This document shows, piece by piece, positions 1,638 through 53,884 of a DNA stretch of 64,000 nucleotides (position 1 is its first letter; every line of letters starts with the position of its first letter). This DNA comes from Candidatus Moraniibacteriota bacterium (GTDB taxonomy: Bacteria > Patescibacteriota > Minisyncoccia > Moranbacterales > UBA1568). The position numbers were made by a program, and so were the translations under genes. The stretch is taken from contig JAAXTX010000004.1 in the NCBI GenBank assembly GCA_013336285.1, positions 624 to 64,623 of the forward strand, given 5' to 3'. Below the pieces are notes generated by a model. It was not told the DNA's origin, made no database searches, and saw nothing but the letters and a program-made list of their open reading frames with translations.

Positions 1638-2039
1638 TTAGCTTTTATTCGAATTAGAGCGAGACTCCAGGGATTTTAGTATGTGATCTACTTCGTGAAC
1701 GGGTATTTCATAATTCCCCTTACCAGCCAATAGCCCTATCGCTTTTAATTTCTTTATTGTAGGGTCAACCGTTCCGGACTTCAGTCCAGTTTTAATCACG
1801 ACTTCCTTTCCGGTAATACTGCTTTCTTGCACGGCTCCTTGTCGCTGTAAAAGCTTTTTCACAAGGCCATACGCAAGAATCTTTTCGTCGGCCTTTAAGG
1901 AGACTTCCCTATGATAAACAAGTATGTGCTCGTCTCTCTGAACTGAAATCAGCGGCTTAAGCACAGCCACAACCCGCTCTTCATCAAAAGGGCCGCTGTC
2001 AGTGAAAAGTTCTTCAACTAAAGCCTTTTTAGATTCCAT
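1638..2039 (-). CDS. Hypothetical small protein (island paralog P1), first gene of minus-strand operon
   Basis: 133-aa ORF in track. ...KILAYGLVKKL...GKGNYEIPVH motif. Sits just downstream of a strong sigma70-like promoter. Confidence 0.45.
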   Translation of the reverse strand: MESKKALVEELFTDSGPFDEERVVAVLKPLISVQRDEHILVYHREVSLKADEKILAYGLVKKLLQRQGAVQESSITGKEVVIKTGLKSGTVDPTIKKLKAIGLLAGKGNYEIPVHEVDHILKSLESRSNSNKS

Positions 2040-2090
2040 ATAATGATATTATTAGTTATTTCGGCGGGGCAGGTTCCACGCGTTATCCTG

Positions 2091-2119
2091 AGTCTAGCAG
2101 GCAACGCTCATGATGTCAA
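2091..2119 (-). promoter_or_regulatory. Sigma70-like promoter (TTGACA-17-TAGACT read on minus strand) driving the 4-gene island operon
   Basis: Reverse complement of 2091-2119 reads TTGACA, then 17 nt, then TAGACT. This lies ~50 nt upstream of the ATG at 2039. Confidence 0.45.
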
Positions 2120-2490
2120 GTGAGATTACAAATTCGACTTGTTAATAGAGTAGAAATATAAGATATTGTTTATTATAAAGTAAAAAAAGTGTAAGTATTT
2201 CCAAATGTTTTTATGATAATCATCAGTATAAACAATATAATGCTTTATATAAAGGCAAAATTTGGCAAGTATATATACATAGTTTAATTATAATAGTATA
2301 CATAATTTATATAAATTCATTCCTTATATAAAGTATATTTATTCAAATAATAATATGATATAATAATTAGAAAATTCAGGTTGCTCAAAGGAGGTGTATT
2401 GGCTGCTAAAGTATATATTGCAAACGTGTCAATATACATTTAAGATTTAAGGAAGAAACATGAAAGCAAGAAAGATCTTAAATTCGTAGT

Positions 2491-3414
2491 ATGTCCCTTT
2501 TGCAGAAAATTCAATCTTTAGCTGTTGATTCAAGCTCAGACATTTCTGAATTGTTGAGGCACTGTAAAATTTTGGCTTTTAGGCTTGATAACAACGAGTT
2601 AAAAAAGTGGGTAGACCTTGAGTTGAATGGATATCTCAATGCTGATGAACTTCCGGAATATAGGATCGTTGACGTTTCGACAAGGGGCCATTTTTTTGGC
2701 TCATTTGGTCGTGAGCTAAAGAATGGGGAAATATCGTTGCATTGTATCGAAAAAGAACACCGAAAATATTTAGACAAGGCATATGCGATGCAGCCAATTT
2801 CTGCCTACCTAGCATTAGTAAGGTCGGCTACGGACGGGCAGAATTTTAAAGAATTTTGGCCTGCTGAGCTTGTTGCTATGTATCATGACAAGATGTATGA
2901 GGAGATGTCATGCCTTTCCGCATGGAAAGAAATACCATATTCCTCCCTGGTTGCGCTAATTGATGTAGTACGAAATCGGATTCTTAATTTTGCTCTCGAG
3001 ATTGAAGCCGAAGATTCGAGGGCTGGCGACGTTTCACTTAATGATCTCGGTAGCACATCTCTTACTCCGGAAAAAATTATGAACGTATTCCACAACACTA
3101 TTATCGGAAATGTTGGAAACCTGTCCGAGGGAGGGAGCGACTACTCTCAGAACGCGGCTGTTTATGTGACTGCTGGAGACTTCCAAGCTCTGCACGATCA
3201 ATTGGTTCAATTTGGAATTGAAGAGCAGGACATTCAGGCATTAAATATCGCCATTGAAGAGGACCGCGAGAGTGAAGATAAGGAATCGAGGGCTCTCGGA
3301 AAAAAAGTGAAAGCTTGGATAGCTAAAGTCACTAGCGGACTGAAGCCATTAGCTCAAAATATCTCCGCCGATTTGATAGTAAAAGCTATCCTTATGTATT
3401 ATGGAATTCAATAA
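2491..3414 (+). CDS. Hypothetical protein, possibly abortive-infection (Abi)-like N-terminal domain
   Basis: 307-aa ORF in track, in the low-GC island and divergent from the island operon. The N-terminal pattern LLRHCKILAFRLDNNELKKWVDLELNGY...PEYRIV reminds me of Abi-family N-termini. This is recollection only. Confidence 0.45.
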   Translation: MSLLQKIQSLAVDSSSDISELLRHCKILAFRLDNNELKKWVDLELNGYLNADELPEYRIVDVSTRGHFFGSFGRELKNGEISLHCIEKEHRKYLDKAYAMQPISAYLALVRSATDGQNFKEFWPAELVAMYHDKMYEEMSCLSAWKEIPYSSLVALIDVVRNRILNFALEIEAEDSRAGDVSLNDLGSTSLTPEKIMNVFHNTIIGNVGNLSEGGSDYSQNAAVYVTAGDFQALHDQLVQFGIEEQDIQALNIAIEEDRESEDKESRALGKKVKAWIAKVTSGLKPLAQNISADLIVKAILMYYGIQ

Positions 3415-3472
3415 GCGGTATTTTCCGCTGAGGTTCTTACCGCGTAAACTAGCCAGCTCAGGAAAGCATAAA

Positions 3473-3501
3473 CTCCCCCGCAGAGGGGAGTTTTTGCTTT
3501 T
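3473..3501 (+). terminator. Rho-independent terminator after the 2491..3414 gene
   Basis: Hairpin CTCCCC-CGCAGA-GGGGAG followed by TTTTTGCTTTT. Confidence 0.5.
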
Positions 3502-3513
3502 CCTGGGTAGATA

Positions 3514-4015
3514 GGGAGTCGAACGGGCAGGAACGAGTTGCGATCCGCCAGCTTGCGGAGAGCAAAACGAGTGTAGACGAATGCGAGCAAACGCAGCATT
3601 CGGCTCTGCCCTGGACAACGAGCGCTTTTAAGCGCGAGGACGAAACTCCTGTTACCCGCATCGTAGGTCGTTCGCTTCCTGTGTGTAGCGCCCTGGCTCC
3701 GCGTCGGAGTGCGGAGGACTCCCGTTACCCGAAATCATGAGCGGGAGTCGAACGGGCAGAAGCGATCCGCCGGCTGGCGGAGAGCGTCGATGAATGCGAC
3801 CGAGCAGGGAGCATTCAGCGCTGCCCTGGATAACGAGGTGTCAGTAGACACCGAGGACGAAACTCCCGTTACCCTCCCCCGTCAAATATTGGAGTCGAAC
3901 GGGCAGAAGCGAGTCTTCGAGTGTCGATGAATGCGACCGAAGAGGAAGCATTCAGCGCTGTCCTGGACAACGAAGCGCCAGCAGGCTCTGAGGACGAGAC
4001 TTCCGTTACCCGCTC
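3514..4015. repeat. Tandem array of three ~145-bp GC-rich repeat units, likely structured RNA or regulatory repeats
   Basis: Units begin at about 3514, 3742 and 3891. Shared blocks: GGAGTCGAACGGGCAG, GAATGCGA, AGCATTCAGCGCTGCCCTGGACAACGA and GAGGACGAAACTCCCGTTACCC. An internal hairpin differs in sequence but keeps pairing: GCGCTTTTAAGCGC in one unit, GGTGTCAGTAGACACC in another. Confidence 0.6.
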
Positions 4016-4083
4016 AAAAAGCAAAAAAGAGAATCTATTCGGACCCCCCCCTTTTTTTTGTTCTTGTAATTACGATAAAAAAA

Positions 4084-4116
4084 GCCCGCGCAATAGCTCG
4101 GGCTTTTCATTTTTTA
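4084..4116 (-). terminator. Rho-independent terminator downstream of the S21-like gene (also reads as a terminator on plus)
   Basis: Hairpin GCCCG-CGCAATAGCT-CGGGC flanked by T-runs on both strands. Confidence 0.5.
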
Positions 4117-4263
4117 CCGCTTCGGACCGTGTCCGAGGCGGCGTGCGCGCCGATATTTTCTCAGGGCGCGGCCTCGCTGCTTGTAAAGGCCTGCCTTTTT
4201 AAACGCGCGTTCACCGCGGCCTGTGATGACGCGCAGTTTTCGACATATGTAAACGTTCGGCAT
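4114..4263 (-). CDS. rpsU: Small basic protein, probably 30S ribosomal protein S21
   Basis: GGAGGTG RBS immediately before ATG at 4263. 49 aa: MPNVYI...ERAFKKAGLYKQRGRALRKYRRARR. Compares to S21 MPxVxV...RRFKRxxEKAG. The track ORF 4114..4323 has an unlikely upstream start. Confidence 0.45.
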   Translation of the reverse strand: MPNVYICRKLRVITGRGERAFKKAGLYKQRGRALRKYRRARRLGHGPKR

Positions 4264-4332
4264 GGTCCACCTCCGTTTGGATTGAAGAAGCCACTGATGA
4301 TGGTGTAGCATGACTTTCGTCAAAGAAGTATT

Positions 4333-4361
4333 GACAGTATCTTATAAGTATGCTATACTAT
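4333..4361 (+). promoter_or_regulatory. Sigma70-like promoter TTGACA-17-TATACT upstream of the 3D-domain gene
   Basis: ttgacagtatcttataagtatgctatact, ~70 nt upstream of the ATG at 4432. Confidence 0.5.
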
Positions 4362-4431
4362 ACCGTTGCGACTGAAAAAGATTCGGTCGTAACTCAAGTC
4401 CGGAGGCTTGAATAAAATGTATTCGTAAGAT

Positions 4432-5019
4432 ATGAGTGGTAAACGTTTGGCGTTTGTCGTGACATTGGTGTATATGTCGTGGACAAATGCCGTTTATGCC
4501 GTGGATGGGGTCGCCATTTCCGAATCTGCCGACAATATTGAGATTTCCGTTACCATGCCCCGGGCTCGGCAGGATTACCGTGATTTCCTAATGAGTTATC
4601 TTTTTGGCGCGATACCGAATGCGCGACTGGCCGATGCTCCTGAAAGTAAGACGGAACAAGAAGGGCCTGAGCAGCGGATCTTGGCCAGATGGAAGGATAA
4701 GCAGACGGACCGTTGGAAAGAGCTTCCAACTGAAAAGTTTGAAATAGTCGCTTCCGCTTATACCGCCTCATCGGACGAATGTGGAAAGGCCGATGGAAAA
4801 ACCGCATCGGGTTTGATGGTAACGGCAAACCGTACACTGGCTTGCCCCGCAAACTATCCGTTCGGGGCAAAAATCGCGATTGACGGATATGGTACGTTCA
4901 GATGCGAAGACCGTGGAGGTGCCATACGCGGGAATCGCTTTGATATCTATATGCTGACGAAGAAAGAAGCGTTCGCATTCGGTCGTCGGCGTCTTTTGGC
5001 CGAAGTTGTCGCCGATTAA
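4432..5019 (+). CDS. Secreted 3D-domain protein (MltA/YocH-like cell-wall binding domain)
   Basis: N-terminal signal peptide. C-terminal ASAYTASSDECGK...ACPANYPFG...GYG...CEDRGGAIRGNRFDIY matches the 3D domain pattern. Confidence 0.7.
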   Translation: MSGKRLAFVVTLVYMSWTNAVYAVDGVAISESADNIEISVTMPRARQDYRDFLMSYLFGAIPNARLADAPESKTEQEGPEQRILARWKDKQTDRWKELPTEKFEIVASAYTASSDECGKADGKTASGLMVTANRTLACPANYPFGAKIAIDGYGTFRCEDRGGAIRGNRFDIYMLTKKEAFAFGRRRLLAEVVAD

Positions 5020-8678: not shown

Positions 8679-8763
8679 GATTATAGATATTTCCAAATCG
8701 TACTATTTTGAATCAAAAAACCCCTCTTGTCAATGAGGACTGCTTGAATGATTGCTATTACTG

Positions 8764-8835
8764 TGCCCCGACTAGGAATCGGACCTAGATCTCATCCTTA
8801 GGACGGATTCGCTCTATCCATTGAGCTATCGAGGC
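8764..8835 (-). tRNA. tRNA-Arg (anticodon CCT), no encoded CCA
   Basis: GCCTCGATAGCTCAATGGATAGAGC 5' half, anticodon loop GUCCUAA, T-arm AGGTCCGATTCCT. The acceptor stem has one G-U pair. Confidence 0.7.
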
Positions 8836-8953
8836 AGTCCGCCGTCAACGGTTGAATATTTTCGTACCGTATTTCTTTAACCCAAACCATCGGGTCGTTG
8901 TCATTATTCCCTGAATTCCCTGACCTTCTTCCGATATTACATTGATGTAACGG

Positions 8954-9026
8954 TGGACCTGAGGAGACTCGAACTCCTGACCTCCTCCATGCCATGGAGG
9001 CGCTCTACCAACTAAGCTACAGGCCC
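8954..9026 (-). tRNA. tRNA-Ala (anticodon GGC) with G3:U70
   Basis: GGGCCTGTAGCTTAGTTGGTAGAGC, anticodon loop AUGGCAU, T-arm GGAGTTCGAGTCTCC, G3:U70 identity pair present. Confidence 0.8.
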
Positions 9027-9165
9027 TACTGCCTTCAAATAGTACCGATATTCACGAATGAAGTCAAACATTGTAAATCATTATTATGACATATACCTGT
9101 ATTATGTCAATTGTTTATTTACGGTATTTGTTTTTGGATTTGTTCATTTACTATATTCGTATTTT

Positions 9166-9690
9166 GTTCTACGTGAAACATTTTCATATGTCCTAGTATT
9201 CAGCAGTTATTTGCACGTTGCAAATACGGATCTGAATTTGTTTTCAATCATTGATTGGTCTACGTATTAGTTGTTCTACGTGGAACATAGAAAATATATA
9301 TAAAGAAATGAAAAGACTGAAGTAATGAAATATGTTTCACATGGAACATGATATTTGTTGATTCATGTCTAATATACATCCAACGCAAAATATGTCTAAA
9401 AATTGTAATTCGAATCTCAAATTGATCGTTCCGCAGAAAGAAGCTATATGTTTCACGTGGAACAACTAATCTAATTGATGATTTAAAATGAATTAATGTT
9501 ATTACGTGGAACAACTAATTCAATTACGAGAAACGAAAGTGTTTCACGTGGAACAAAAAATACATTACTGAGGAGTGGCTGAACAATCGTACGAGTATGA
9601 ATTGATTAAATACATGATTTGCACATTGAGGCTCCTAAATAGCGAAAGCATTAATAATCAAGGAAAAACGATAAGTGTTCTACGTGGAAC
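9166..9690. repeat. Seven spaced copies of a 14-bp palindromic motif GTTyyACGTGGAAC in an AT-rich intergenic region
   Basis: Copies start at 9166, 9273, 9334, 9450, 9499, 9541 and 9677. Core CACGTG. The region lies between tRNA-Ala (minus) and the 9811 gene. Confidence 0.55.
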
Positions 9691-9810
9691 AAATTAAACT
9701 TGACATTAGATGTGAATTGTATCATAATGCAAATAGAAATAGAATTTCAATGCCGTAAGATGCAGAAGAATATACAATAAAACAACAACCACAAGGATAC
9801 TTGGCAATAT

Positions 9811-10857
9811 GTGGAAATTAGTGATATAATGAAAAAAAAGAAAGTGATAACAAATATGGAACAGAAAAAAGTTCATCGGTCTGTTCTCGGATTATCGAGG
9901 AAATTAGCGTTTCTTATATGTGGCTTGCTCTTCGGGAGCAGTGCCTTTTTTGTTTTCGCATTGGATGAAAAGGCTAATGCAAACATAGTCGAGGACTCGG
10001 ATCAGGACGGTCTCACGAATGCAGAGGAGCAACTATACGGGACAGATGCGACAAATCCAGATACGGACGGCGACGGATATACTGACGGTGTGGAAGTCCG
10101 AAGCGGATACAATCCCATGAAGAAGGCGCCCGGGGATAAGATTACAACCGATTCAGCACAGACCGCGACCGAGGATGGCCGGCAGGTGGGAGAGAATCTG
10201 ACACAGCAAATGTCTTCAAAAATTGCCGGCATCGTTCAAAATGCCGAAGTCAAGGACGACGGCACCGCATCCGTTTCGCTGGACGAACTGAATAGTCTTT
10301 CAGAAGAAATTGCGGCAGGAGGGCAAGATAACATCGTCCTTCCTGACGTTGATGTGTCTACCATAAAGACCAAAAAAGAATCATATACGAAATTGTCCGA
10401 CAAGGACAGAAAGGAAAAGGTGAAGGAAGATATCACGGAGTATATGACCGTGATAGCATACATATTCGCAAACAATTCGCCACAGACGGTGAAGACTACG
10501 AACGATCTGCAGTCGGTATCGGATACGGTAGTGAAAAACGCGACTTCAGCGCTCACCGTTGGAAACCTGTCCCAAATAGATGCGCTCGCGGAAAATGGTA
10601 ACAAGATCCTGGAACAGGTTAAGGATGTCGAAGTGCCCGAGACGATGTTGGATACGCACGTGAAGGCGCTCAAGCTCGCGATGTATGCATCGGAACTTCA
10701 TGATAAGGCTCCTGCCACGACAGACGAAGATCCCATTCAGTCGATCAAGACCTTGTCATATACACAAGGTTTGCTGAACGTAGCAAGTAGTTTTGCGATC
10801 GATGTACAAAAGAAGCTGGCTGATGAAGGCATTTCGGAAATTCCAATAGAGTTCTAG
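9811..10857 (+). CDS. Secreted or membrane-anchored protein with DxDxDG calcium-binding (thrombospondin type-3-like) repeats
   Basis: Hydrophobic N-terminal anchor, then DSDQDGLTNAEEQLYGTDATNPDTDGDGYTDGVEV. Start may be an internal M (MKKKK at 9829 or MEQKK at 9856). Confidence 0.55.
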   Translation: MEISDIMKKKKVITNMEQKKVHRSVLGLSRKLAFLICGLLFGSSAFFVFALDEKANANIVEDSDQDGLTNAEEQLYGTDATNPDTDGDGYTDGVEVRSGYNPMKKAPGDKITTDSAQTATEDGRQVGENLTQQMSSKIAGIVQNAEVKDDGTASVSLDELNSLSEEIAAGGQDNIVLPDVDVSTIKTKKESYTKLSDKDRKEKVKEDITEYMTVIAYIFANNSPQTVKTTNDLQSVSDTVVKNATSALTVGNLSQIDALAENGNKILEQVKDVEVPETMLDTHVKALKLAMYASELHDKAPATTDEDPIQSIKTLSYTQGLLNVASSFAIDVQKKLADEGISEIPIEF

Positions 10858-10867
10858 TCGTATACCT

Positions 10868-11869
10868 ATGAAAAACGGAATTATTGTTCGCATAATCGCG
10901 GGCGTGATAATCTCTTCATCTACGCTTATATTGACGGCTCCGCCAGCCCGGGCGGATTATTGGGGGATGGCGATCGCGGCAACGATACTTAATCAATCTT
11001 TGACGAAGATTCAAAAGCAGATAGAGGGGATAATGCTGGCCGTCCTAAAAACGACGGCGATTTCCGTGATTCAGTCGAATGTAAACAGCATGATCGGCGG
11101 ATCAAATGCAAGCGACACGAAAATTATTACGGATTGGCAAAAATATCTGTATGATGATCCCACTACGACGACAAAGACGTACATGACCAGTTATCTGACG
11201 AGTGCGACTGGTGGAAGATCCACGGGAAATTACAGTAGCGATTGGAGTACGTATCTTCAATCTTCGGCTAAGTCGAATCTCATAACCGGTTCCGATGCGA
11301 CCATGCTGACGAGCAATATGGATGAAATAGTGTCCAATCCCAAGTCGTCGCTTGATAGTGGAAATCTTCTCGCGTACGACGCATATTGGAGTAATCCGAT
11401 GAATAATCCTTACGGGTTTACCATGATTGCCCAGAATCAGGAGCAGTATAAGCTCTCCCAGGAGCAACAGAAGCAATATGTGAAGTCGATTTCACACGGA
11501 TATGACAGCGTCGAGAAGAACGGAAAGGTTATTCTCCCCGGAAGCACCGTAGGCCAGATCGTCGCTGATTCGCAAAATATCGGGAATAACGTCATAGCTT
11601 CCTCTCAAAGCCCCTACGAACTTGCCAGCGGAGTCGTTCTTTCCATAGTGAACAAGGCTGTCACGAAAATGATTCAAAGCGGCGTTGGATCCATTCAGGC
11701 AAACCTGCAACGCGAGGTGAACAGCGTTACAAATAGCATAAGCTCCCAGGTCGGAACGATTTCAAGGACATCGGGTACCCTGTCAAAATACACGACCGAA
11801 GTCAGGCAGCAGTCGGGTACGACGGCGAACACGGCTGCAAACGCCGCAACGGCTATTCCTGTGAAATAG
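10868..11869 (+). CDS. Secreted S/T/N/Q-rich hypothetical protein
   Basis: Signal-peptide-like N-terminus (IIAGVIISSSTLILTAPPARA). No recognised domain. Co-directional with the 9811 gene and followed by a terminator. Confidence 0.5.
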   Translation: MKNGIIVRIIAGVIISSSTLILTAPPARADYWGMAIAATILNQSLTKIQKQIEGIMLAVLKTTAISVIQSNVNSMIGGSNASDTKIITDWQKYLYDDPTTTTKTYMTSYLTSATGGRSTGNYSSDWSTYLQSSAKSNLITGSDATMLTSNMDEIVSNPKSSLDSGNLLAYDAYWSNPMNNPYGFTMIAQNQEQYKLSQEQQKQYVKSISHGYDSVEKNGKVILPGSTVGQIVADSQNIGNNVIASSQSPYELASGVVLSIVNKAVTKMIQSGVGSIQANLQREVNSVTNSISSQVGTISRTSGTLSKYTTEVRQQSGTTANTAANAATAIPVK

Positions 11870-11895
11870 TTGCGGAAATCGAGATAAAAACTAAA

Positions 11896-11921
11896 ACACC
11901 CGGGATATCCGGGTGTTTTTG
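11896..11921 (+). terminator. Rho-independent terminator
   Basis: ACACCCGG-GATAT-CCGGGTGT followed by TTTT. Confidence 0.5.
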
Positions 11922-12026
11922 ATGTGAATATGATATTGAAATGAATCCATCCATCGCGCAAACCGATCGGAAAAAGGGGTGATATCATTATGCCGAGAAT
12001 CTTACGATACATGGTCAATCGCTCGG

Positions 12027-12164: not shown

Positions 12165-13055
12165 TCATGCCTGTCCGGTACCCGGTATTTCCCTTTGTAT
12201 CATCTTTTCATCTTCTTGTGAAGTCTCAATGTCGATCGAAGGTTTCGGCTGTGAGGCGATGTATTTGAAAAGCTTGAGCCAGGCAGACTTGTTTACCGCG
12301 TTCAAATATGAAAATGCGGCTACGATAAGGAAAGAAATTGCGGATATTTTCATTACGGAGAAGGGAAACAGGGTCAGGATCGGGTCAATAACCGACGCCA
12401 GGACCGATGATAGTGTCAAATTGACAAGGATGGAAACCATACCGAATATCAGACTGGATGATATCCGCTTGCGGAAAAGTCCGTATCCTAGATCGATACC
12501 GGTACGTAACGAAACGTTCGAGAGAATAATGTGAAAACTCGAATACGTTTTTGAGTAGAATAACTGTGTCAGTGTGAAGATGTAGATCGCCGCTCCGAAG
12601 ATGAGAAGTATCACGGAGACAGGACTCTCACGACCCGAAAGAAAATATGGGTAAGTGAGCAGGATACCGAGAATTAGCCCAGTAAGCAAGAATCCCGCTT
12701 CGAGTAGAAATATTCTTCGGACAGCTCCCGAAGCCTTCATCGTAGTAGCGACTAAACCCAATCTCTTGTCCGCCAGACTAACGACAAGACCGCACCCTGA
12801 CAGAATCGACAATATTGAAATAGGAACAAGCGCGAGAGCGAAGCCGGGATTTCCTTGAAACCAACGCAGAACCGAATCATGGTATATCTCCAACGGCATT
12901 CCATTCTGGAAAAGTGATACGAAATCAGTTCCGAATACCGCGGAAATCAACCCGAACAGGACCGCCGTCCGATTTCTCGGCACTTCCATGCCGGCCTCCA
13001 GAAAATATCCGAGGAATGTATACCATTCGCCATGTGATTTCCTGCTATTGAGCAT
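12165..13055 (-). CDS. Polytopic integral membrane protein, function unknown
   Basis: Multiple hydrophobic helices. Start chosen at [11 protein letters not shown] (13055) to avoid a ~200-nt overlap with ftsH. Confidence 0.45.
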   Translation of the reverse strand: MLNSRKSHGEWYTFLGYFLEAGMEVPRNRTAVLFGLISAVFGTDFVSLFQNGMPLEIYHDSVLRWFQGNPGFALALVPISILSILSGCGLVVSLADKRLGLVATTMKASGAVRRIFLLEAGFLLTGLILGILLTYPYFLSGRESPVSVILLIFGAAIYIFTLTQLFYSKTYSSFHIILSNVSLRTGIDLGYGLFRKRISSSLIFGMVSILVNLTLSSVLASVIDPILTLFPFSVMKISAISFLIVAAFSYLNAVNKSAWLKLFKYIASQPKPSIDIETSQEDEKMIQREIPGTGQA

Positions 13056-14940
13056 TGCTCTCCGAAGTGACGTCGGAATCGATCTTATCGACATGCTGCG
13101 CGACGGCAGCGGTATCGGTTGAGATCTTTCCTGAAATGATAGCGTCGAAGTCGTCCTTTTCGATCGTTTCTTTTTCGAGTAACGTGTTAGCGATTCGGTC
13201 GAGAATAGCGCGCTTCTCCGTGATGATTTCAGTAGCCTTCCTTTCAGCTTCAGCCACGAGGCTGGCAACTTCGACGTCTATCATCTTCGCGGTATCGTCC
13301 GAATAGTTTCTTTCCTCGTGTAGCTCTTTTCCGAGGAAAATAAGCTCCTCCTTGTTTCCAAACGTACGTGCACCGAGCTTGCTCATTCCATAACGGGTCA
13401 CCATGCTGCGAGCCATGCTGGTCGCACGCTCCAAATCACTGGAGGGACCGGTGGTGGTATCGTTGAAAATCATTCTTTCAGCTGAAAAGCCACCCAGCAG
13501 CGTGGCCAGTTCGGAACGAAAATAATTGGAAGAGTGCAGGGTCTTGTCTTCGGTCGGCACGGCGAGAGTGTAACCGCCGGCATGACCCCGTGCGATGATC
13601 GAAACCTTGTGAACCGGATCGGCATCAGGAAGACTGGCTGCGACCAATGCGTGGCCGGCCTCGTGATAGGCGATTATTTTCTTTTCCTGTTCATTGATGA
13701 CACGGCTTCTCCGTTCGGGCCCGAGAATGACCTTTTCAATGGACTCAGCGAACTCGTTCATACCGATGGTTTTCTTTTCGCGACGGGTGGCGAGAATCGC
13801 TCCCTCGTTCACGAGATTCGCGAGATCGGCGCCTGAAAACCCAGGCGTGCGTTCCGCGAGACGACGTACGTTGACGTCCTTGGCAAGCGGTTTTCCCTTG
13901 AGATGAATCTTGAGTATGGCTTCCCGATCGTTGATATCGGGGAGATCCATCGTGACACGTCGATCGAAACGGCCCGGTCTCAACAACGCTGGATCAAGTA
14001 CGTCAGGGCGGTTCGTCGCCGCGATGACGATGACATTGGTATCGGTTTCGAATCCGTCCATCTCGACAAGAATCTGGTTCAGTGTCTGCTCCCGTTCGTC
14101 ATGGCCACCTCCGAGTCCGGCACCGCGGTGCCGTCCGACCGCATCGATTTCGTCTATAAATACGATTGCCGGTGCGTTCTTTTTCGCCTGCTTGAATAAA
14201 TCACGCACCCGACTCGCACCGACACCGACGAACATCTCGACGAACTCCGATCCCGAGATGTTGAAGAACGGCACGCCCGCTTCGCCGGCTACGGCCTTCG
14301 CGATAAGCGTCTTTCCGGTTCCGGGAGACCCGAGAAGAAGGACGCCTTTAGGAATTTTTGCTCCCATCGCGAGAAATTTCTTGGGATGCTTAAGGAAATC
14401 GACGATTTCCTTAAGCTCCTCCTTGGCTTCCTTGGACCCGGCGACATCGGAAAAAGTGACCGACTTCTTCTTGTTTCGGGGATCGAGCATTCTCGCGCGG
14501 GAAAGACCGAAATTCATAGCCTGTGAGTTTCCGCGTTGAGCCTGTTTCAACATAAACCAGACGAAGCCACCGACAAAAAGGAGCGGGATGAGGAAAGGAA
14601 GCAGCGCGGCAGCCCAGAACGATGCCCCGGATTCTTTCTTGATGTCGATTATGACCGCGGAGAGCTTTTCCTGATCGACGCCGTAGTTTTTTAGGGTTTC
14701 CGTAAGGGAAGACTCCGCTTCCTTGAGCGATTCAGCCTTTTTCCCGTCTGCAAGATCGATAGCAAGGTCATTTGCAGAGACTTCGATCTTGCTTACGTGC
14801 CCCGCATTGATTTCGGTTACCAGAGCGGAAAGTGAGAGTTGCTCCGGCTTTGGCGACTGCTCCTGATAGAGGAGGAGTATGCCGGAAACGACGAGAAAAA
14901 AGACTACTATCGTCGCTATATTTTTCATCAGTTTGTCCAT
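13045..14940 (-). CDS. ftsH: ATP-dependent zinc metalloprotease FtsH
   Basis: N-terminal TM, Walker A GSPGTGKT, zinc site HEAGHA. Confidence 0.9.
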
Positions 14941-14949
14941 AATTCAGTA

Positions 14950-15894
14950 TCATTGCTTATTCCGTATCATGGTTACTCTATCACCTCTCGCCTCGATTTT
15001 CAACCATAAGGAGGAGTAGGTTCGAACCTTGCTTTTATAGCTCGATATAAGCTTTTCGGCTTCACGTATGAGAGCCGCAGTCGGATATTTTTTAACTCCA
15101 AGGACGATGCGGTAAAGTCTCCGAATTTCAGCTGTCCTGTCAGGCGGTGTCAGGCAGAGATACTCGTTCCGCGAAAATGACAAACCTCCCGGAGTGATGC
15201 ATGTCTGAAGTCCGTGAAAATCGGCGACTTTCTTTTCGAAATGCTCATCCAGAAGACGAGCGGTTCTTGCAAGCGTTTTCCGTACCCCTTTGCGATAGTC
15301 GCGATCCAGAAGGGGAATGAGCTCATGTCTTATACGGTTGCGGAGAATAGTCGTGTCATCATTTGTCTTATCGGTCCGATAGGTGAGTTTTTCAGATCGA
15401 AGAAACTCGAGGATGTCCTTTTTTGAGATCTCCAAGAATGGACGGATAATAGCGCCGTGTCTCGGTCGCATAGCCGCGAGGCCGTAAGGTCCGGTTCCGC
15501 GAAGGAGGCGAATGAGAACGGTTTCGGCCTGATCGTCTTCGGTGTGTGCAGTGACTATGTGATCGAAAGTCTCTATCCGGAGAATTTTTTCGAAGTATCG
15601 ATAGCGAATATCGCGCAGCTCTTCCTCATTCCGTCCCTGTACGATTTTTGGGCGGAAAACGTAACAGGGAACGTCATACTGATCACAAAGGATGCGGACG
15701 AATGATTCGTCGCCATCAGACTCTTCCCCACGGATTCGGTAGTTTACGTGAATAACTCCTATCCGAAGACGAAGTTTATCGCGGAGCGAGAGAAAAACAT
15801 GCAGCAGCGCTACGCTGTCAGGACCTCCCGAACAGGCGATCAAAAAAGAACCAGACTCCGAAAAAAGCCCGTTTCTGCTATCGTAACCGCGCAC
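14950..15894 (-). CDS. tilS: tRNA(Ile)-lysidine synthetase
   Basis: PP-loop SGGPDS. Probable GTG start at 15894, giving ~20 aa before SGGPDS as in characterised TilS. The longer ATG-initiated ORF would overlap gmk by ~100 nt. Confidence 0.7.
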   Translation of the reverse strand: MRGYDSRNGLFSESGSFLIACSGGPDSVALLHVFLSLRDKLRLRIGVIHVNYRIRGEESDGDESFVRILCDQYDVPCYVFRPKIVQGRNEEELRDIRYRYFEKILRIETFDHIVTAHTEDDQAETVLIRLLRGTGPYGLAAMRPRHGAIIRPFLEISKKDILEFLRSEKLTYRTDKTNDDTTILRNRIRHELIPLLDRDYRKGVRKTLARTARLLDEHFEKKVADFHGLQTCITPGGLSFSRNEYLCLTPPDRTAEIRRLYRIVLGVKKYPTAALIREAEKLISSYKSKVRTYSSLWLKIEARGDRVTMIRNKQ

Positions 15895-15940
15895 GCGCTT
15901 TATCAGGGCTCGTCCGAATCCTGATAATGGGACGTACGAC

Positions 15941-16537
15941 CTAGCGACCCTTGAGGGTTCCGAGACGTTCCCTGATGTAGGCTTCCGCTTGGTCGACGGC
16001 TTCCGAGAGCTTCCCGTCCCGATTTTCGATGACGTAGTCATAATATGGTTTCTCTTTCTCGATTTCCTCCCGTGCGTTATCGAGACGGCGTTCAAGCTCT
16101 TTTTCCGACATGTCGGGATTCCTGATTCGAAGTCGGTTAGCGAGAATTTCCAGGGATTCCGGCGCAATAAAAATCGTATCCGCACCGAATTGTTCCTTAA
16201 AGAATTTCGTACCTACGATGTCAGTGTTCGCTATGATGACGTTGCCGGATTCGAGATCGCGCGCCAATTCAGGCCGATAGGTCCCATAGTATGTATCACG
16301 GTTCGAAATGTACGAGTATTCGGGTATATTGCCGTTTTTCAATTCTTCTTCAAAGCGTTCCTTGGCGAAGAAAAAATAGTCTACACCCTCCAGTTCCCCG
16401 TCACGTGGAGCCCGAGTCGTAGCCGTTATGAGTCTTCTTGCGGGAAGTCTCTCCAATAATGCTTTCGTAATGGTGCTTTCCCCGCTTCCGCTGGGTCCGC
16501 TGATGACAACTATGTGTCCGGTTCCGTTATTATTCAT
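15941..16537 (-). CDS. gmk: Guanylate kinase
   Basis: GPSGSGESTI P-loop, typical Gmk length. Confidence 0.85.
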   Translation of the reverse strand: MNNNGTGHIVVISGPSGSGESTITKALLERLPARRLITATTRAPRDGELEGVDYFFFAKERFEEELKNGNIPEYSYISNRDTYYGTYRPELARDLESGNVIIANTDIVGTKFFKEQFGADTIFIAPESLEILANRLRIRNPDMSEKELERRLDNAREEIEKEKPYYDYVIENRDGKLSEAVDQAEAYIRERLGTLKGR

Positions 16538-16609
16538 ACGGTTTTCGATGTGTTTCGGAAGTGAATGACCAGATAAGAAAAGTCCCGCACAAGGCGGGAC
16601 TCGGGGAGG

Positions 16610-17782
16610 TTATTCCGATTTCTTCTCCTCACCCTTTCCTTCGGCAGTCTTCTTTTTCTTGCCGGCGTCCTTGACCGGAAGAAGGCCCATGCGATGAGCC
16701 TGTTGCTCGATCGAAAGGATTTTCCAGTCATACGTCTCGCCAGTCCGGAAGATGTCTTCCATCTTCTGCCGCGGGTAAACGTCTTGGAACTCCGAGACGT
16801 GGGCAAGACCGTGGATATCGTCGTCGAGATATACGAACGCCCCGAAATGGTTGATCTTATCCACTTTGCCAGAAACGATCTGACCGACCTGATAACGCTC
16901 GAGTACGGCAGTCCACGGGTCTTTCTGGAGCGCTTTCATGGACAGAGAGATGCGCGTATCCTCGATGCCGATGATCTTCGCTTTCACATGATCGCCGGTT
17001 TTTACGATTTCTCGCGGATTGTCGATGAGCTGCCAAGCCAATTCCGAGATATGGACGAGTCCCTCGAGCTTCTGACCGGCCTTTTTACCGTTCGGATCGA
17101 TCGGGGCATCAAATTTGACGAACGCTCCAAAATCGACGACGCCGGATACTTCTCCCTCGATCATTTCTCCGGGTCGAAGTCTTCCGATAAGTTCGCGATC
17201 GCGTTCACTCTGCGCCGCTTTTTCGCTGACAATGAGCTTTTCGTTCTCACGGTCAATGTCGAGAATCCGTATACTGATCGTTTCTCCGATCAGGGAGCGA
17301 AGCATATCGAGAATCTTGTTCTTGTCACCGTCTTCAACGCGCGGATAGTGCTCGTTGGCGAGTTGAGAGACCGGAAGAAAGCCCATAATTCCGTTGAGTT
17401 CTACCATGAGTCCGCCTTTGTTGGCGTCCTGTACCTTCGTTTCTATGACGGATTTTCCTTCGAGTTTGTCAAAAAGATCCTCCCAGGCCTTCTCGTAGGA
17501 GGCTTCACGGATGGATATCTCTATATCACCGTCCTCGTTTTCGAAACTGACGAGTGTCCCGATCACTTCTTCTCCTACATGAAGCTTGGCACCTCCGGAG
17601 AGGCCGCTTTTCATTTCCTTGCCCAAAACGACACCGGTCCCGAGCGGGCCGAGGTCTACCAATGCCTGATTTGAGGCCACATGAATGACGGTTCCCGTCA
17701 CTGCGTCGCCGACGGAGGGAATCTCTACGGAATCCTCCTCAATTAGGTTTTCCAATACGGTCGAATCGCTTGCTTTTGACAT
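16610..17782 (-). CDS. rpsA: 30S ribosomal protein S1
   Basis: Repeated S1 domains (GEVSGVVDFGAFVKF, GKVDKINHFGAFVYL). Confidence 0.85.
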   Translation of the reverse strand: MSKASDSTVLENLIEEDSVEIPSVGDAVTGTVIHVASNQALVDLGPLGTGVVLGKEMKSGLSGGAKLHVGEEVIGTLVSFENEDGDIEISIREASYEKAWEDLFDKLEGKSVIETKVQDANKGGLMVELNGIMGFLPVSQLANEHYPRVEDGDKNKILDMLRSLIGETISIRILDIDRENEKLIVSEKAAQSERDRELIGRLRPGEMIEGEVSGVVDFGAFVKFDAPIDPNGKKAGQKLEGLVHISELAWQLIDNPREIVKTGDHVKAKIIGIEDTRISLSMKALQKDPWTAVLERYQVGQIVSGKVDKINHFGAFVYLDDDIHGLAHVSEFQDVYPRQKMEDIFRTGETYDWKILSIEQQAHRMGLLPVKDAGKKKKTAEGKGEEKKSE

Positions 17783-52108: not shown

Positions 52109-53884
52109 ATGACCCTGCATGATTCCAATAAGACAATCGCGGAGAATATCCGGAAATATCGTGAATTGAAAGGGTTTTCACAGGGGGATTTGGCTGCGAC
52201 ACTTCACGTTGATCGATCGTATGTGAGTACGCTGGAAAGCGGGACGAGGAATCCGTCCGTTCGAACACTCGACAAGGTTGCCAAGTCACTCGGCACGAGT
52301 CTCGTTTCCCTTGTAGAAACGCCGAGGTTTGAGCATAAGGGAATATCCGATGCTATCCCGTACGTATCCGGGCTTATCGAAATGAAGCGGAAAGAGTGGT
52401 CCGGCAAGGAGTGGTATCATCAGCGCTTCGACGGGTCGCCGTACCTTATTCATATGATCGGGGAAGCGGAAATCGTAACGAGACGCGATAAGAAATACGG
52501 ACTTTCATTCAATCGGCATTTCTGTTTCTTTGAAGACGGGAAGGCGGATTGGTATATCGATGTCGCGGAAATCGATCGGATATCGGCTGAGATCCTGAAA
52601 TTGTCGCATCGTCACGGCGATATAAGTAAGCGACTGATAGAGGAGTATCGTCCGTTCGAATCGGCATTTTACGAGAATTGCGAACGGATCCGAGCGACGA
52701 ATCTACACTCCCTTTCGAATCGCGATCTTATCTTGCTTCACGACGAGTATTTGCAGACGATACTGACACGGAACAGTTCGAGTTCGATGATAGACGGGTT
52801 CGCGCTCGGTACCGATCGAATGCTTGAGGAACGGATCAAACATACCTACGAATCGTGCCCGGACGCGTCCGGAACCCTCAGTTTTTCCGAAACGTTTTCC
52901 ATCCTGACGACCCCGGATCACTCTTCGTTTATCCGCGAAGCGGAACTCGGATTATTCCGATTAATACTTGCGCTTCGGAAACGAGGCGATGACCGCCGAA
53001 AACTGATTCGAGAATATCGTGACCGATATTTCTGGATCCGGAACAACTATATTGATTCAAACGAACTTTCCGTCGCGTATTTCGAGGAGGAAGTCGCGCG
53101 GATTGATTCCTCCGGACTGGATATAGAAGCCGAAATAGCGCGTATCGAAAACCTTCCCGCGGAAAACCGAAAAATGAAGAATGCTTTGTTGGTAAAGCTC
53201 GGACTCGACGAAGCGACGCGCGCGCTTCTTTCCATTACCGAGGACTTCACCGCGTGGCAGGATGATCGCAAAAAGGCGACGATGTATACCGCCTATTATT
53301 GTACGCTCATGCTTGACGAGATAGCTCGGCGTGTCGGTCTTTCTGCCGATCTGCTCAAATATATGTCTCCGAGGGAGGTTTCCCGAATATTTCTGGATAC
53401 TCCGACGATTGACGTATTGGAGAAACGCCGTACCCACAGTGTGGCATATTGGGATGAGGACGGTCATGAAATCTTGTCCGGCGACACGGTCACTGAACTT
53501 CATAAAGAACTTCAGGGAAACAAAGATATGGAGGATGTGAAGGATTTTCGCGGATTGACTGCCTCGCTCGGGTCGGCACAGGGAAGGGTCAGGATTATCC
53601 GGAGCGTGAAGGAGATAGGCCGCGTGAAGCAGGGTGATGTGCTGGTTGCGGTGATGACCCGGCCGGACTATGTGCCTGCCATGCGGATCGCCGTCGCGAT
53701 CGTGACCGACGAGGGCGGTATTACTTCGCATGCCGCCATCGTGGCACGTGAGCTGAAGATCCCGTGTGTCATCGGGACCAAGATAGCGACCAGGATACTT
53801 CGTGACGGCGATCTCGTACAGGTGAACGCGAATCACGGAGTCGTACGGATACTGGAACGCGCGCCGATTACGAAGACGGAGTAA
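52109..53884 (+). CDS. Fusion protein: N-terminal XRE-family HTH, central unknown ~400-aa region, C-terminal PEP-utilising-enzyme mobile (phosphohistidine swivel) domain
   Basis: HTH LKGFSQGDLAATLHVDRSYVSTLESGTRNPSVRTLDKVAKSL. C-terminal GDVLVAVMTRPDY..AIVTDEGGITSHAAIVARELKIPCVIGT matches the swivel-domain signature with the catalytic His. Confidence 0.6.
   Translation: MTLHDSNKTIAENIRKYRELKGFSQGDLAATLHVDRSYVSTLESGTRNPSVRTLDKVAKSLGTSLVSLVETPRFEHKGISDAIPYVSGLIEMKRKEWSGKEWYHQRFDGSPYLIHMIGEAEIVTRRDKKYGLSFNRHFCFFEDGKADWYIDVAEIDRISAEILKLSHRHGDISKRLIEEYRPFESAFYENCERIRATNLHSLSNRDLILLHDEYLQTILTRNSSSSMIDGFALGTDRMLEERIKHTYESCPDASGTLSFSETFSILTTPDHSSFIREAELGLFRLILALRKRGDDRRKLIREYRDRYFWIRNNYIDSNELSVAYFEEEVARIDSSGLDIEAEIARIENLPAENRKMKNALLVKLGLDEATRALLSITEDFTAWQDDRKKATMYTAYYCTLMLDEIARRVGLSADLLKYMSPREVSRIFLDTPTIDVLEKRRTHSVAYWDEDGHEILSGDTVTELHKELQGNKDMEDVKDFRGLTASLGSAQGRVRIIRSVKEIGRVKQGDVLVAVMTRPDYVPAMRIAVAIVTDEGGITSHAAIVARELKIPCVIGTKIATRILRDGDLVQVNANHGVVRILERAPITKTE

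Follow-up and report, generated by a model that had tools for sequence, protein, structure and literature searches.

The 64-kb window analyzed here (the whole stretch of DNA under analysis, 64,000 nucleotides) contains an AT-rich intergenic region in which an initial annotation had listed seven spaced copies of a short palindrome. We asked what kind of site this palindrome is, which protein might read it, and whether related genomes carry it at the same place.

The intergenic region and its repeats

The region had been described as AT-rich and as bounded by minus-strand tRNA-Ala/tRNA-Arg genes on the left and by a secreted-protein gene at 9811 on the right. We found that both descriptions are accurate: the GC content is 28-34% compared to approximately 50% for the window, and the gene starts at 9811 or 9829. 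The region, its boundaries, and its predicted promoters are as follows.

8763..8835, minus strand: tRNA-Arg(CCU), the next gene in the tRNA-Ala/tRNA-Arg/rbfA unit
8952..9026, minus strand: tRNA-Ala(GGC), left boundary of the region
9027..9810, no strand: AT-rich intergenic region with the parS array, flanked by divergent promoters; GC 0.28-0.34
9039..9067, minus strand: second, proximal promoter-like site before tRNA-Ala, TTGACT-17-TACTAT
9083..9110, minus strand: sigma-70-like promoter of the tRNA-Ala/tRNA-Arg/rbfA unit, TTGACA-16-TGcATAAT
9700..9728, plus strand: sigma-70-like promoter of the TSP3 gene, TTGACA-17-CATAAT
9811..10857, plus strand: secreted or membrane-anchored protein with bacterial TSP3 repeats, right boundary

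A Pfam search of 50 ORFs indicates that the window is ordinary chromosome, encoding rbfA, a DHH/NrnA-like phosphoesterase, UDG, ftsH, tilS, and gmk as well as an S1 protein, gyrA, PNPase, ksgA, pyruvate kinase, and ddl. None of these 50 ORFs was identified as parA, parB, dnaA, dnaN, rep, cas, or a Nop-domain gene, and the earlier remark that dnaA and dnaN are absent nearby holds throughout the window. The neighbors without family annotation (10868-11869 and 12165-13268) are secreted or membrane proteins and not DNA binders, and the TSP3-repeat protein gene is a neighbor of the array that plays no part in its mechanism. An Rfam scan of the window returned six tRNAs and no other RNA family.

Elsewhere in the window, positions 2000-5000 form a low-GC patch (0.34) with an AbiTii abortive-infection gene (2491-3414) and several family-less ORFs. 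This patch lies just beyond tRNA-Cys/tRNA-Leu, a junction at which relatives carry other DNA of approximately 2 kb or 8 kb (L063 2805-4907 compared with L002 4821-12727), and it looks like a variable island or an integration hot spot by tRNA genes. Furthermore, a 591-aa protein (52109-53884, plus strand) joins an N-terminal Cro/C1-type HTH to a C-terminal PEP-utilising-enzyme mobile (phosphohistidine) domain; this combination is unusual and hints at a regulator under phosphotransfer control. Two adjoining genes at 25119-26516 (plus strand) encode NYN-domain proteins (predicted RNases) of 168 and 259 aa.

All seven listed positions (9166, 9273, 9334, 9450, 9499, 9541, and 9677) carry the repeat, as judged from the sequence of 8700-10100 and from a pattern search. 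The repeat is one base longer on each side than had been reported and forms a 16-bp palindrome, TGTTNCACGTGNAACA. Its copies are listed here.

9165..9180, no strand: parS copy 1, TGTTCTACGTGAAACA, 1 mismatch to TGTTNCACGTGNAACA
9272..9287, no strand: parS copy 2, TGTTCTACGTGGAACA, 1 mismatch to TGTTNCACGTGNAACA
9333..9348, no strand: parS copy 3, TGTTTCACATGGAACA, 1 mismatch, at the center (CACATG)
9449..9464, no strand: parS copy 4, TGTTTCACGTGGAACA, perfect; reverse complement of the B. subtilis site TGTTCCACGTGAAACA
9498..9513, no strand: decayed copy, GTTATTACGTGGAACA, with an intact right half-site only (GTTCCAC on the minus strand)
9540..9555, no strand: parS copy 6, TGTTTCACGTGGAACA, perfect
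9676..9691, no strand: parS copy 7, TGTTCTACGTGGAACA, 1 mismatch; 8 bp upstream of the -35 of the TSP3-gene promoter

The chromosomal parS consensus is TGTTNCACGTGAAACA (PMC7022226). Judged by its sequence, the repeated palindrome is canonical chromosomal parS, the binding site of ParB/Spo0J. Six sites depart from the 16-bp consensus by no more than one base: copies 4 and 6 (9449 and 9540) match B. subtilis parS exactly (they read TGTTCCACGTGAAACA on the minus strand), while each of the other four full copies is one base off. One reading in the initial annotation was an array of operators for a dimeric regulator. In form these are indeed sites for a dimeric DNA-binding protein, but they are canonical parS and not an anonymous operator.

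Within the window, TGTTNCACGTGNAACA is matched at no more than one mismatch six times, and all six matches fall within 527 bp (9165-9691), while the chance expectation from 100 dinucleotide shuffles of the window is 0.00. Allowing three mismatches gave no further match outside the array in the 64 kb. A scatter of the motif at similar density, which had been named as a sign of a generic repeat, was not seen, the motif being confined to this locus both in the window and in the related loci. The start-to-start distances between copies are 107, 61, 116, 49, 42, and 136 bp, in agreement with the range of 42-136 bp given previously. The shared polarity described for the flanks is real as well, the GTGGAACA half lying on the right in six of the seven copies, but it is not conserved in relatives. 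Both the decayed copy at 9498 and copy 4 are followed downstream by GGAACAACTAAT, which indicates a local duplication of 49 bp.

Arrays at related loci

Relatives were gathered via the DHH/NrnA-like neighbor protein, by a search of representative genomes and then by comparing a DHH alignment with metagenome contigs. The representative genomes yielded two Candidatus Moranbacteria MAGs whose DHH protein is 67-68% identical, and the contig scan yielded 16 further loci. The window is chromosomal DNA of a relative of Candidatus Moranbacteria, which belong to Parcubacteria within Patescibacteria/CPR. In the closer clade (59-68% protein identity), we found a parS array before tRNA-Ala in every locus whose sequence reaches far enough upstream; L063, which stops 227 bp short of the tRNA-Ala gene on that side, was left out as uninformative for the array. 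Five independent relatives share the position of the array between a secreted-protein gene and tRNA-Ala/tRNA-Arg/rbfA. The gene order in this clade runs tRNA-Val ... secreted-protein genes, AT-rich gap, tRNA-Ala, tRNA-Arg, rbfA, DHH, UDG, tRNA-Cys, tRNA-Leu, and the AT-rich gaps of the relatives are of a similar kind, at 758-1033 bp. The arrays compare as follows.

Window array: 6 parS and 1 decayed copy, spaced 42-136 bp
L001 array: 9 parS, spaced 60-69 bp
L002 / L061 array: only 4 parS, imperfect; one lineage, with identical sequence here
L062 array: 7 parS, all perfect
L064 array: 6 parS
L075 array: 14 parS

Pooling the six arrays gave 46 parS sites. Between 41 and 46 of these agree at each of positions 1-4, 6-11, and 13-16, and the only variable positions are 5 and 12 (Y/R), which are the two N of the generalised pattern. 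Across these sites the flanks hold no information beyond A/T richness, and the parS-masked spacers could not be aligned between genomes by blastn. We found no second conserved motif in the six parS-masked intergenic regions, whose shared k-mers are promoter hexamers and AT-rich words. Since the site is kept while the spacers are unalignable, our data indicate that selection within the gap acts on the 16-bp site and, apart from the promoters, on nothing more; this pattern of purifying selection on the site but not on its surroundings extends over five further lineages. The dominant site variant of two relatives (L001 and L062) is nearly the M. xanthus parS consensus, TGTTCCACGTGGAACG (PMC3899335).

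The number and arrangement of sites differ from genome to genome. Spacing is irregular across genomes, at 33-229 bp, and several arrays contain duplicated units: one of 157 bp present twice at 97% identity in L062, one of 122 bp present 2.1 times at 85% identity in L001, two-site units of about 102-105 bp in L075, and the 49-bp unit of the window. The dominant half-site combination differs genome by genome, and half-site polarity in relatives is symmetric, the same, or opposite. Because polarity varies across genomes, we attribute the shared polarity seen in the window to local duplication history and not to function. The arrays evolve by tandem duplication and decay of site-plus-spacer units, which accounts for both the shared polarity within a genome and the range of 4-14 copies between genomes.

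The promoters, in contrast to copy number and site distances, are fixed. A TTGACA/TATAAT-like pair lies at the place matching the distal tRNA promoter in all relatives, the GTTTGAC...TATCAT element at the proximal tRNA-Ala promoter is kept in relatives, and the hexamers and spacing of the TSP3 promoter, as read from the sequence, are identical in L001. As an observation in its own right, two tandem sigma-70-like promoters before tRNA-Ala (window 9039-9110, minus strand) are kept in L001, L002, L062, L064, and L075. The last parS also keeps a nearly constant distance of 98-138 bp from the tRNA across relatives, although the remainder of the gap is not alignable.

More distant relatives, with DHH proteins 42-50% identical, have neither the tRNA synteny nor a parS array near the DHH gene, so the array is specific to one clade. 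One of these distant relatives, L073, carries a single near-perfect parS (TGTTCCACGGGAAACA, 3100-3115) downstream of DHH, on a 3.2-kb contig that ends 90 bp away; its closest kin (L074 and others) are without parS in the equivalent region, so this site may have arisen by chance or may border an array that has moved.

The search for ParB and alternative readings of the array

Neither ParB nor ParA was found in the 64-kb window by Pfam across 50 ORFs. A phmmer search with B. subtilis Spo0J against ORFs of at least 50-60 aa gave no match at E<=10 in the window, and the same search found no ParB in any of 76 loci; for L001-L004 and L061-L076, Pfam and phmmer gave neither ParB nor ParA. The Spo0J probe agrees with PDB 6sdk at E=3e-121. 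The window thus holds no parAB within 9 kb of the array to its one side or 54 kb to its other, and the DNA beyond the tRNA cluster of L063 adds only L19 and an RluD-like gene. Since parB is absent from the window and from the related loci, we infer the binding protein. The action of ParB on sites far from its own gene, or on DNA that does not encode ParB, is well documented; phi29, for example, has five parS sites that serve the host Spo0J (PMC2731898). We consider it unlikely that the clade lacks a canonical ParB and that some other protein recognizes the sites in its stead.

Clustered parS sites were also seen on viral contigs. One IMG/VR contig of approximately 12 kb (L020) is a phi29-like podovirus with a protein-primed PolB, a Gp16 packaging ATPase, a connector, and a Phi29-type capsid protein; it has 3-5 canonical parS at each genome end (98-229 and 11890-11948) and is without a ParB gene. 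Three other IMG/VR contigs of approximately 12 kb (L011, L012, and L034) carry parS at both ends in the same layout. In all, 56 IMG/VR contigs have at least two perfect parS 40-70 bp apart, in pairs or arrays of 2-8 sites, with ParB undetected in the stretch examined. Phages of the L020 type extend the borrowing of host Spo0J by phi29 (PMC2731898) to uncultured relatives, with more sites.

We considered whether the palindromes could instead be operators through which a dimeric transcription factor regulates the divergent promoters of the tRNA operon and the TSP3 gene. These sigma-70-like promoters directly flank the array, with its last site 8 bp before the TSP3 -35 and its first site approximately 55 bp upstream of the distal tRNA -35. 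In P. aeruginosa, intergenic parS sites repress adjacent genes (PMC7022226), so that ParB itself could plausibly influence transcription here as a side effect. A dedicated regulator nevertheless seems improbable, since the sites match parS base for base, including which two positions vary, and since copy number (4-14) and site distances vary freely among relatives in which the promoters stay fixed. Furthermore, there is no regulator gene adjacent to the array, its neighbors being secreted or membrane proteins, tRNAs, and rbfA.

That the AT-rich region is, or contains, oriC, with repeats that bind an initiator as an origin or iteron cluster, is quite improbable. At 0.78 kb, the region is AT-rich and unusually long for a compact genome, the AT skew flips sign inside the gap in all six genomes, and the cumulative GC skew of the window is flat at 2-18 kb and rises after 18 kb. 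We examined GC and AT skew profiles at 2 kb, 1 kb, and 200 bp, within the six arrays, and along the related loci. The change in AT-skew sign tracks the two divergent transcription units, and the flat stretch reflects a gene block transcribed against the prevailing direction and not a switch. Indeed, GC skew, which had been put forward as a check for an origin, does not point to one here: in each of the six genomes, spacer GC skew keeps a single sign from one end of the array to the other, and in relatives the sign is unchanged for approximately 10 kb beyond it. A candidate skew turning point at the left of the window was also discarded, as relatives keep one polarity for approximately 10 kb further.

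The sequence content of the region argues against an origin as well. The suggestion of an iteron or DnaA-box-like cluster did not hold up: DnaA boxes (TTATCCACA-like) at no more than two mismatches number 0 in 9030-9810 compared to 3.6 expected, a scan at no more than one mismatch found no box cluster anywhere in the window, and dnaA, dnaN, and rep are all missing from its ORFs. No conserved motif is shared besides parS and the promoter hexamers. An oriC would be marked by a box cluster, an unwinding element, dnaA/dnaN, and a GC-skew switch, and we did not find this set at the locus; iterons are direct repeats of 17-22 bp beside a rep initiator gene, whereas the repeats here are irregularly spaced palindromes in a housekeeping context.

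With respect to strand organization, nearly all genes from 18 kb onward (17983-64000) lie on the plus strand, and GC skew there is strongly positive, the few minus-strand genes included. The ftsH-tilS-gmk-S1 block (12165-17782, minus strand) runs against the prevailing direction with flat skew, likewise in L001, and may be an old inversion of housekeeping genes.

A mobile-element remnant, that is, a phage or plasmid centromere that borrows the host ParB and was inserted beside the tRNA genes, is extremely improbable. tRNA genes are common integration sites, and the 56 IMG/VR contigs with close parS pairs or arrays and undetected ParB, together with one phi29-like phage, agree with such an origin. 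Against it, the array lies within housekeeping synteny (S1, gmk, tilS, ftsH ... tRNA-Val ... array ... tRNA-Ala, tRNA-Arg, rbfA, DHH, UDG), this synteny holds across lineages whose proteins are only 59-68% identical, and no integrase, phage, or plasmid gene is adjacent to the array.

Finally, a generic genomic repeat or RNA-guide array (a REP or MITE-like element, CRISPR, or TIGR) deserves practically no weight: unique spacers do separate the copies of a short palindromic repeat here and TIGR arrays do occur in CPR bacteria (PMC12045711), but there are no copies outside the locus, the irregular parS spacing of 33-229 bp contrasts with strictly periodic CRISPR and with 36-nt TIGR units (PMC12045711), a tandem-repeat finder reported no periodic array for the motif copies of the window, the window contains no cas or Nop-domain tas gene, adjacent or otherwise, and the array has no Rfam match.

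A putative centromere and its relation to known partition sites

Taken together, the region is very probably a chromosomal centromere, with six full parS sites and one half-decayed copy gathered in a single intergenic region and with ParB as its presumed ligand. Its most likely function is that of a multi-site loading platform for ParB clamps. At parS, ParB undergoes a CTP-dependent closure into a clamp that slides onto the flanking DNA. We propose that a ParB whose gene lies elsewhere in the genome would bind each palindrome as a dimer via its helix-turn-helix domains, and that binding would trigger closure of the clamp, which would slide away and leave the site free for the next dimer. Because each site would be freed in this way, seven close sites would constitute a high-flux platform that raises the loading rate and the local amount of ParB. 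The loaded ParB would seed one dense partition complex, and ParA and/or SMC condensin would act on this complex to organise and separate sister chromosomes. Strong divergent promoters, of the tRNA operon and of the surface-protein operon, bound the array; as a matter of speculation, these promoters might be modulated by ParB occupancy or might limit ParB spreading.

Chromosomal parS sites lie mostly in the origin-proximal 20% of the chromosome (PMC7022226). We tentatively suggest, as a possibility that we do not favor strongly, that this Moranbacteria clade has a single plasmid-style regional centromere, in which all parS sit in one promoter-bounded gap, unlinked from parAB and off the skew switch, with a fast turnover among 4-14 copies. 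If so, no cis-acting element for chromosome maintenance would have been defined in CPR/Patescibacteria before this array, and it would offer a handle for ParB-fusion labelling or for stabilising vectors in hosts that are barely tractable.

CPR chromosomes are roughly 1 Mb in size. To our knowledge, almost nothing is known about chromosome replication and segregation in these ultrasmall, host-dependent bacteria, and we found no report of ParB or parS in CPR/Patescibacteria in the literature searched, the coverage of which was incomplete. The parS array is of a well-understood type that had not previously been described from CPR. A conserved, dense array of canonical parS argues for standard ParB-based machinery in at least this Moranbacteria clade. 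Furthermore, the array marks the expected place of partition-complex assembly and thereby provides a landmark for use in ChIP and imaging and in the search for the origin region of closed genomes, while the natural series of 4-14 sites bears on how site number affects ParB loading. As the first cis-acting segregation landmark in a CPR lineage the array is useful, although it will not surprise a specialist.

In B. subtilis, parS sites are dispersed and lie largely inside genes. The palindrome of its Spo0J-parS system is identical to the one described here over all 16 bp, with two exact copies in the window and the same two variable positions. B. subtilis has 10 sites, 8 of which are in the origin domain (PMC7022226 Table 1), whereas all detectable sites of the window lie within 527 bp of intergenic DNA. 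A closer parallel in density is M. xanthus, in which 22 parS occupy approximately 3 kb located 4 kb upstream of parA (PMC3899335). That cluster is likewise a dense chromosomal group of canonical parS, at approximately 1 per 139 bp compared to 1 per 59-100 bp here, but it lies next to parAB and approximately 35 kb from oriC, and ParB binding to it was shown in vitro. The arrays described here have no par genes nearby, contain 4-14 sites, are flanked by strong divergent promoters, and are known from sequence alone.

The sopC/parSF site of the F plasmid consists of 12 repeats of a 16-bp site with 27-bp spacers (PMC8357417). It resembles the array in that many ParB-family palindromes, built by tandem duplication, make up one partition site in approximately 0.5 kb. 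However, sopC is strictly periodic (43 bp), has a plasmid-specific sequence, and adjoins sopAB, while the array is irregular, follows the chromosomal consensus, and lies on a chromosome away from par genes. The marks of a plasmid-type tandem centromere (periodicity, its own parAB adjacent, and an element-specific sequence) are accordingly absent from it. The parS sites of the phi29 family (PMC2731898) are similar in being clustered and canonical, with no ParB of their own nearby and with ParB made elsewhere. They differ in that they are located on a phage and serve spore entrapment, whereas the array is an ancestral chromosomal feature in conserved synteny. Compared with these systems, the dense chromosomal parS array is denser than in the best-known model chromosomes, yet it has a precedent in M. 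xanthus; what is distinctive here is the CPR lineage, the lack of par linkage over 9 kb and 54 kb, the promoter-bounded gap, and the birth-and-death turnover of sites among close relatives.
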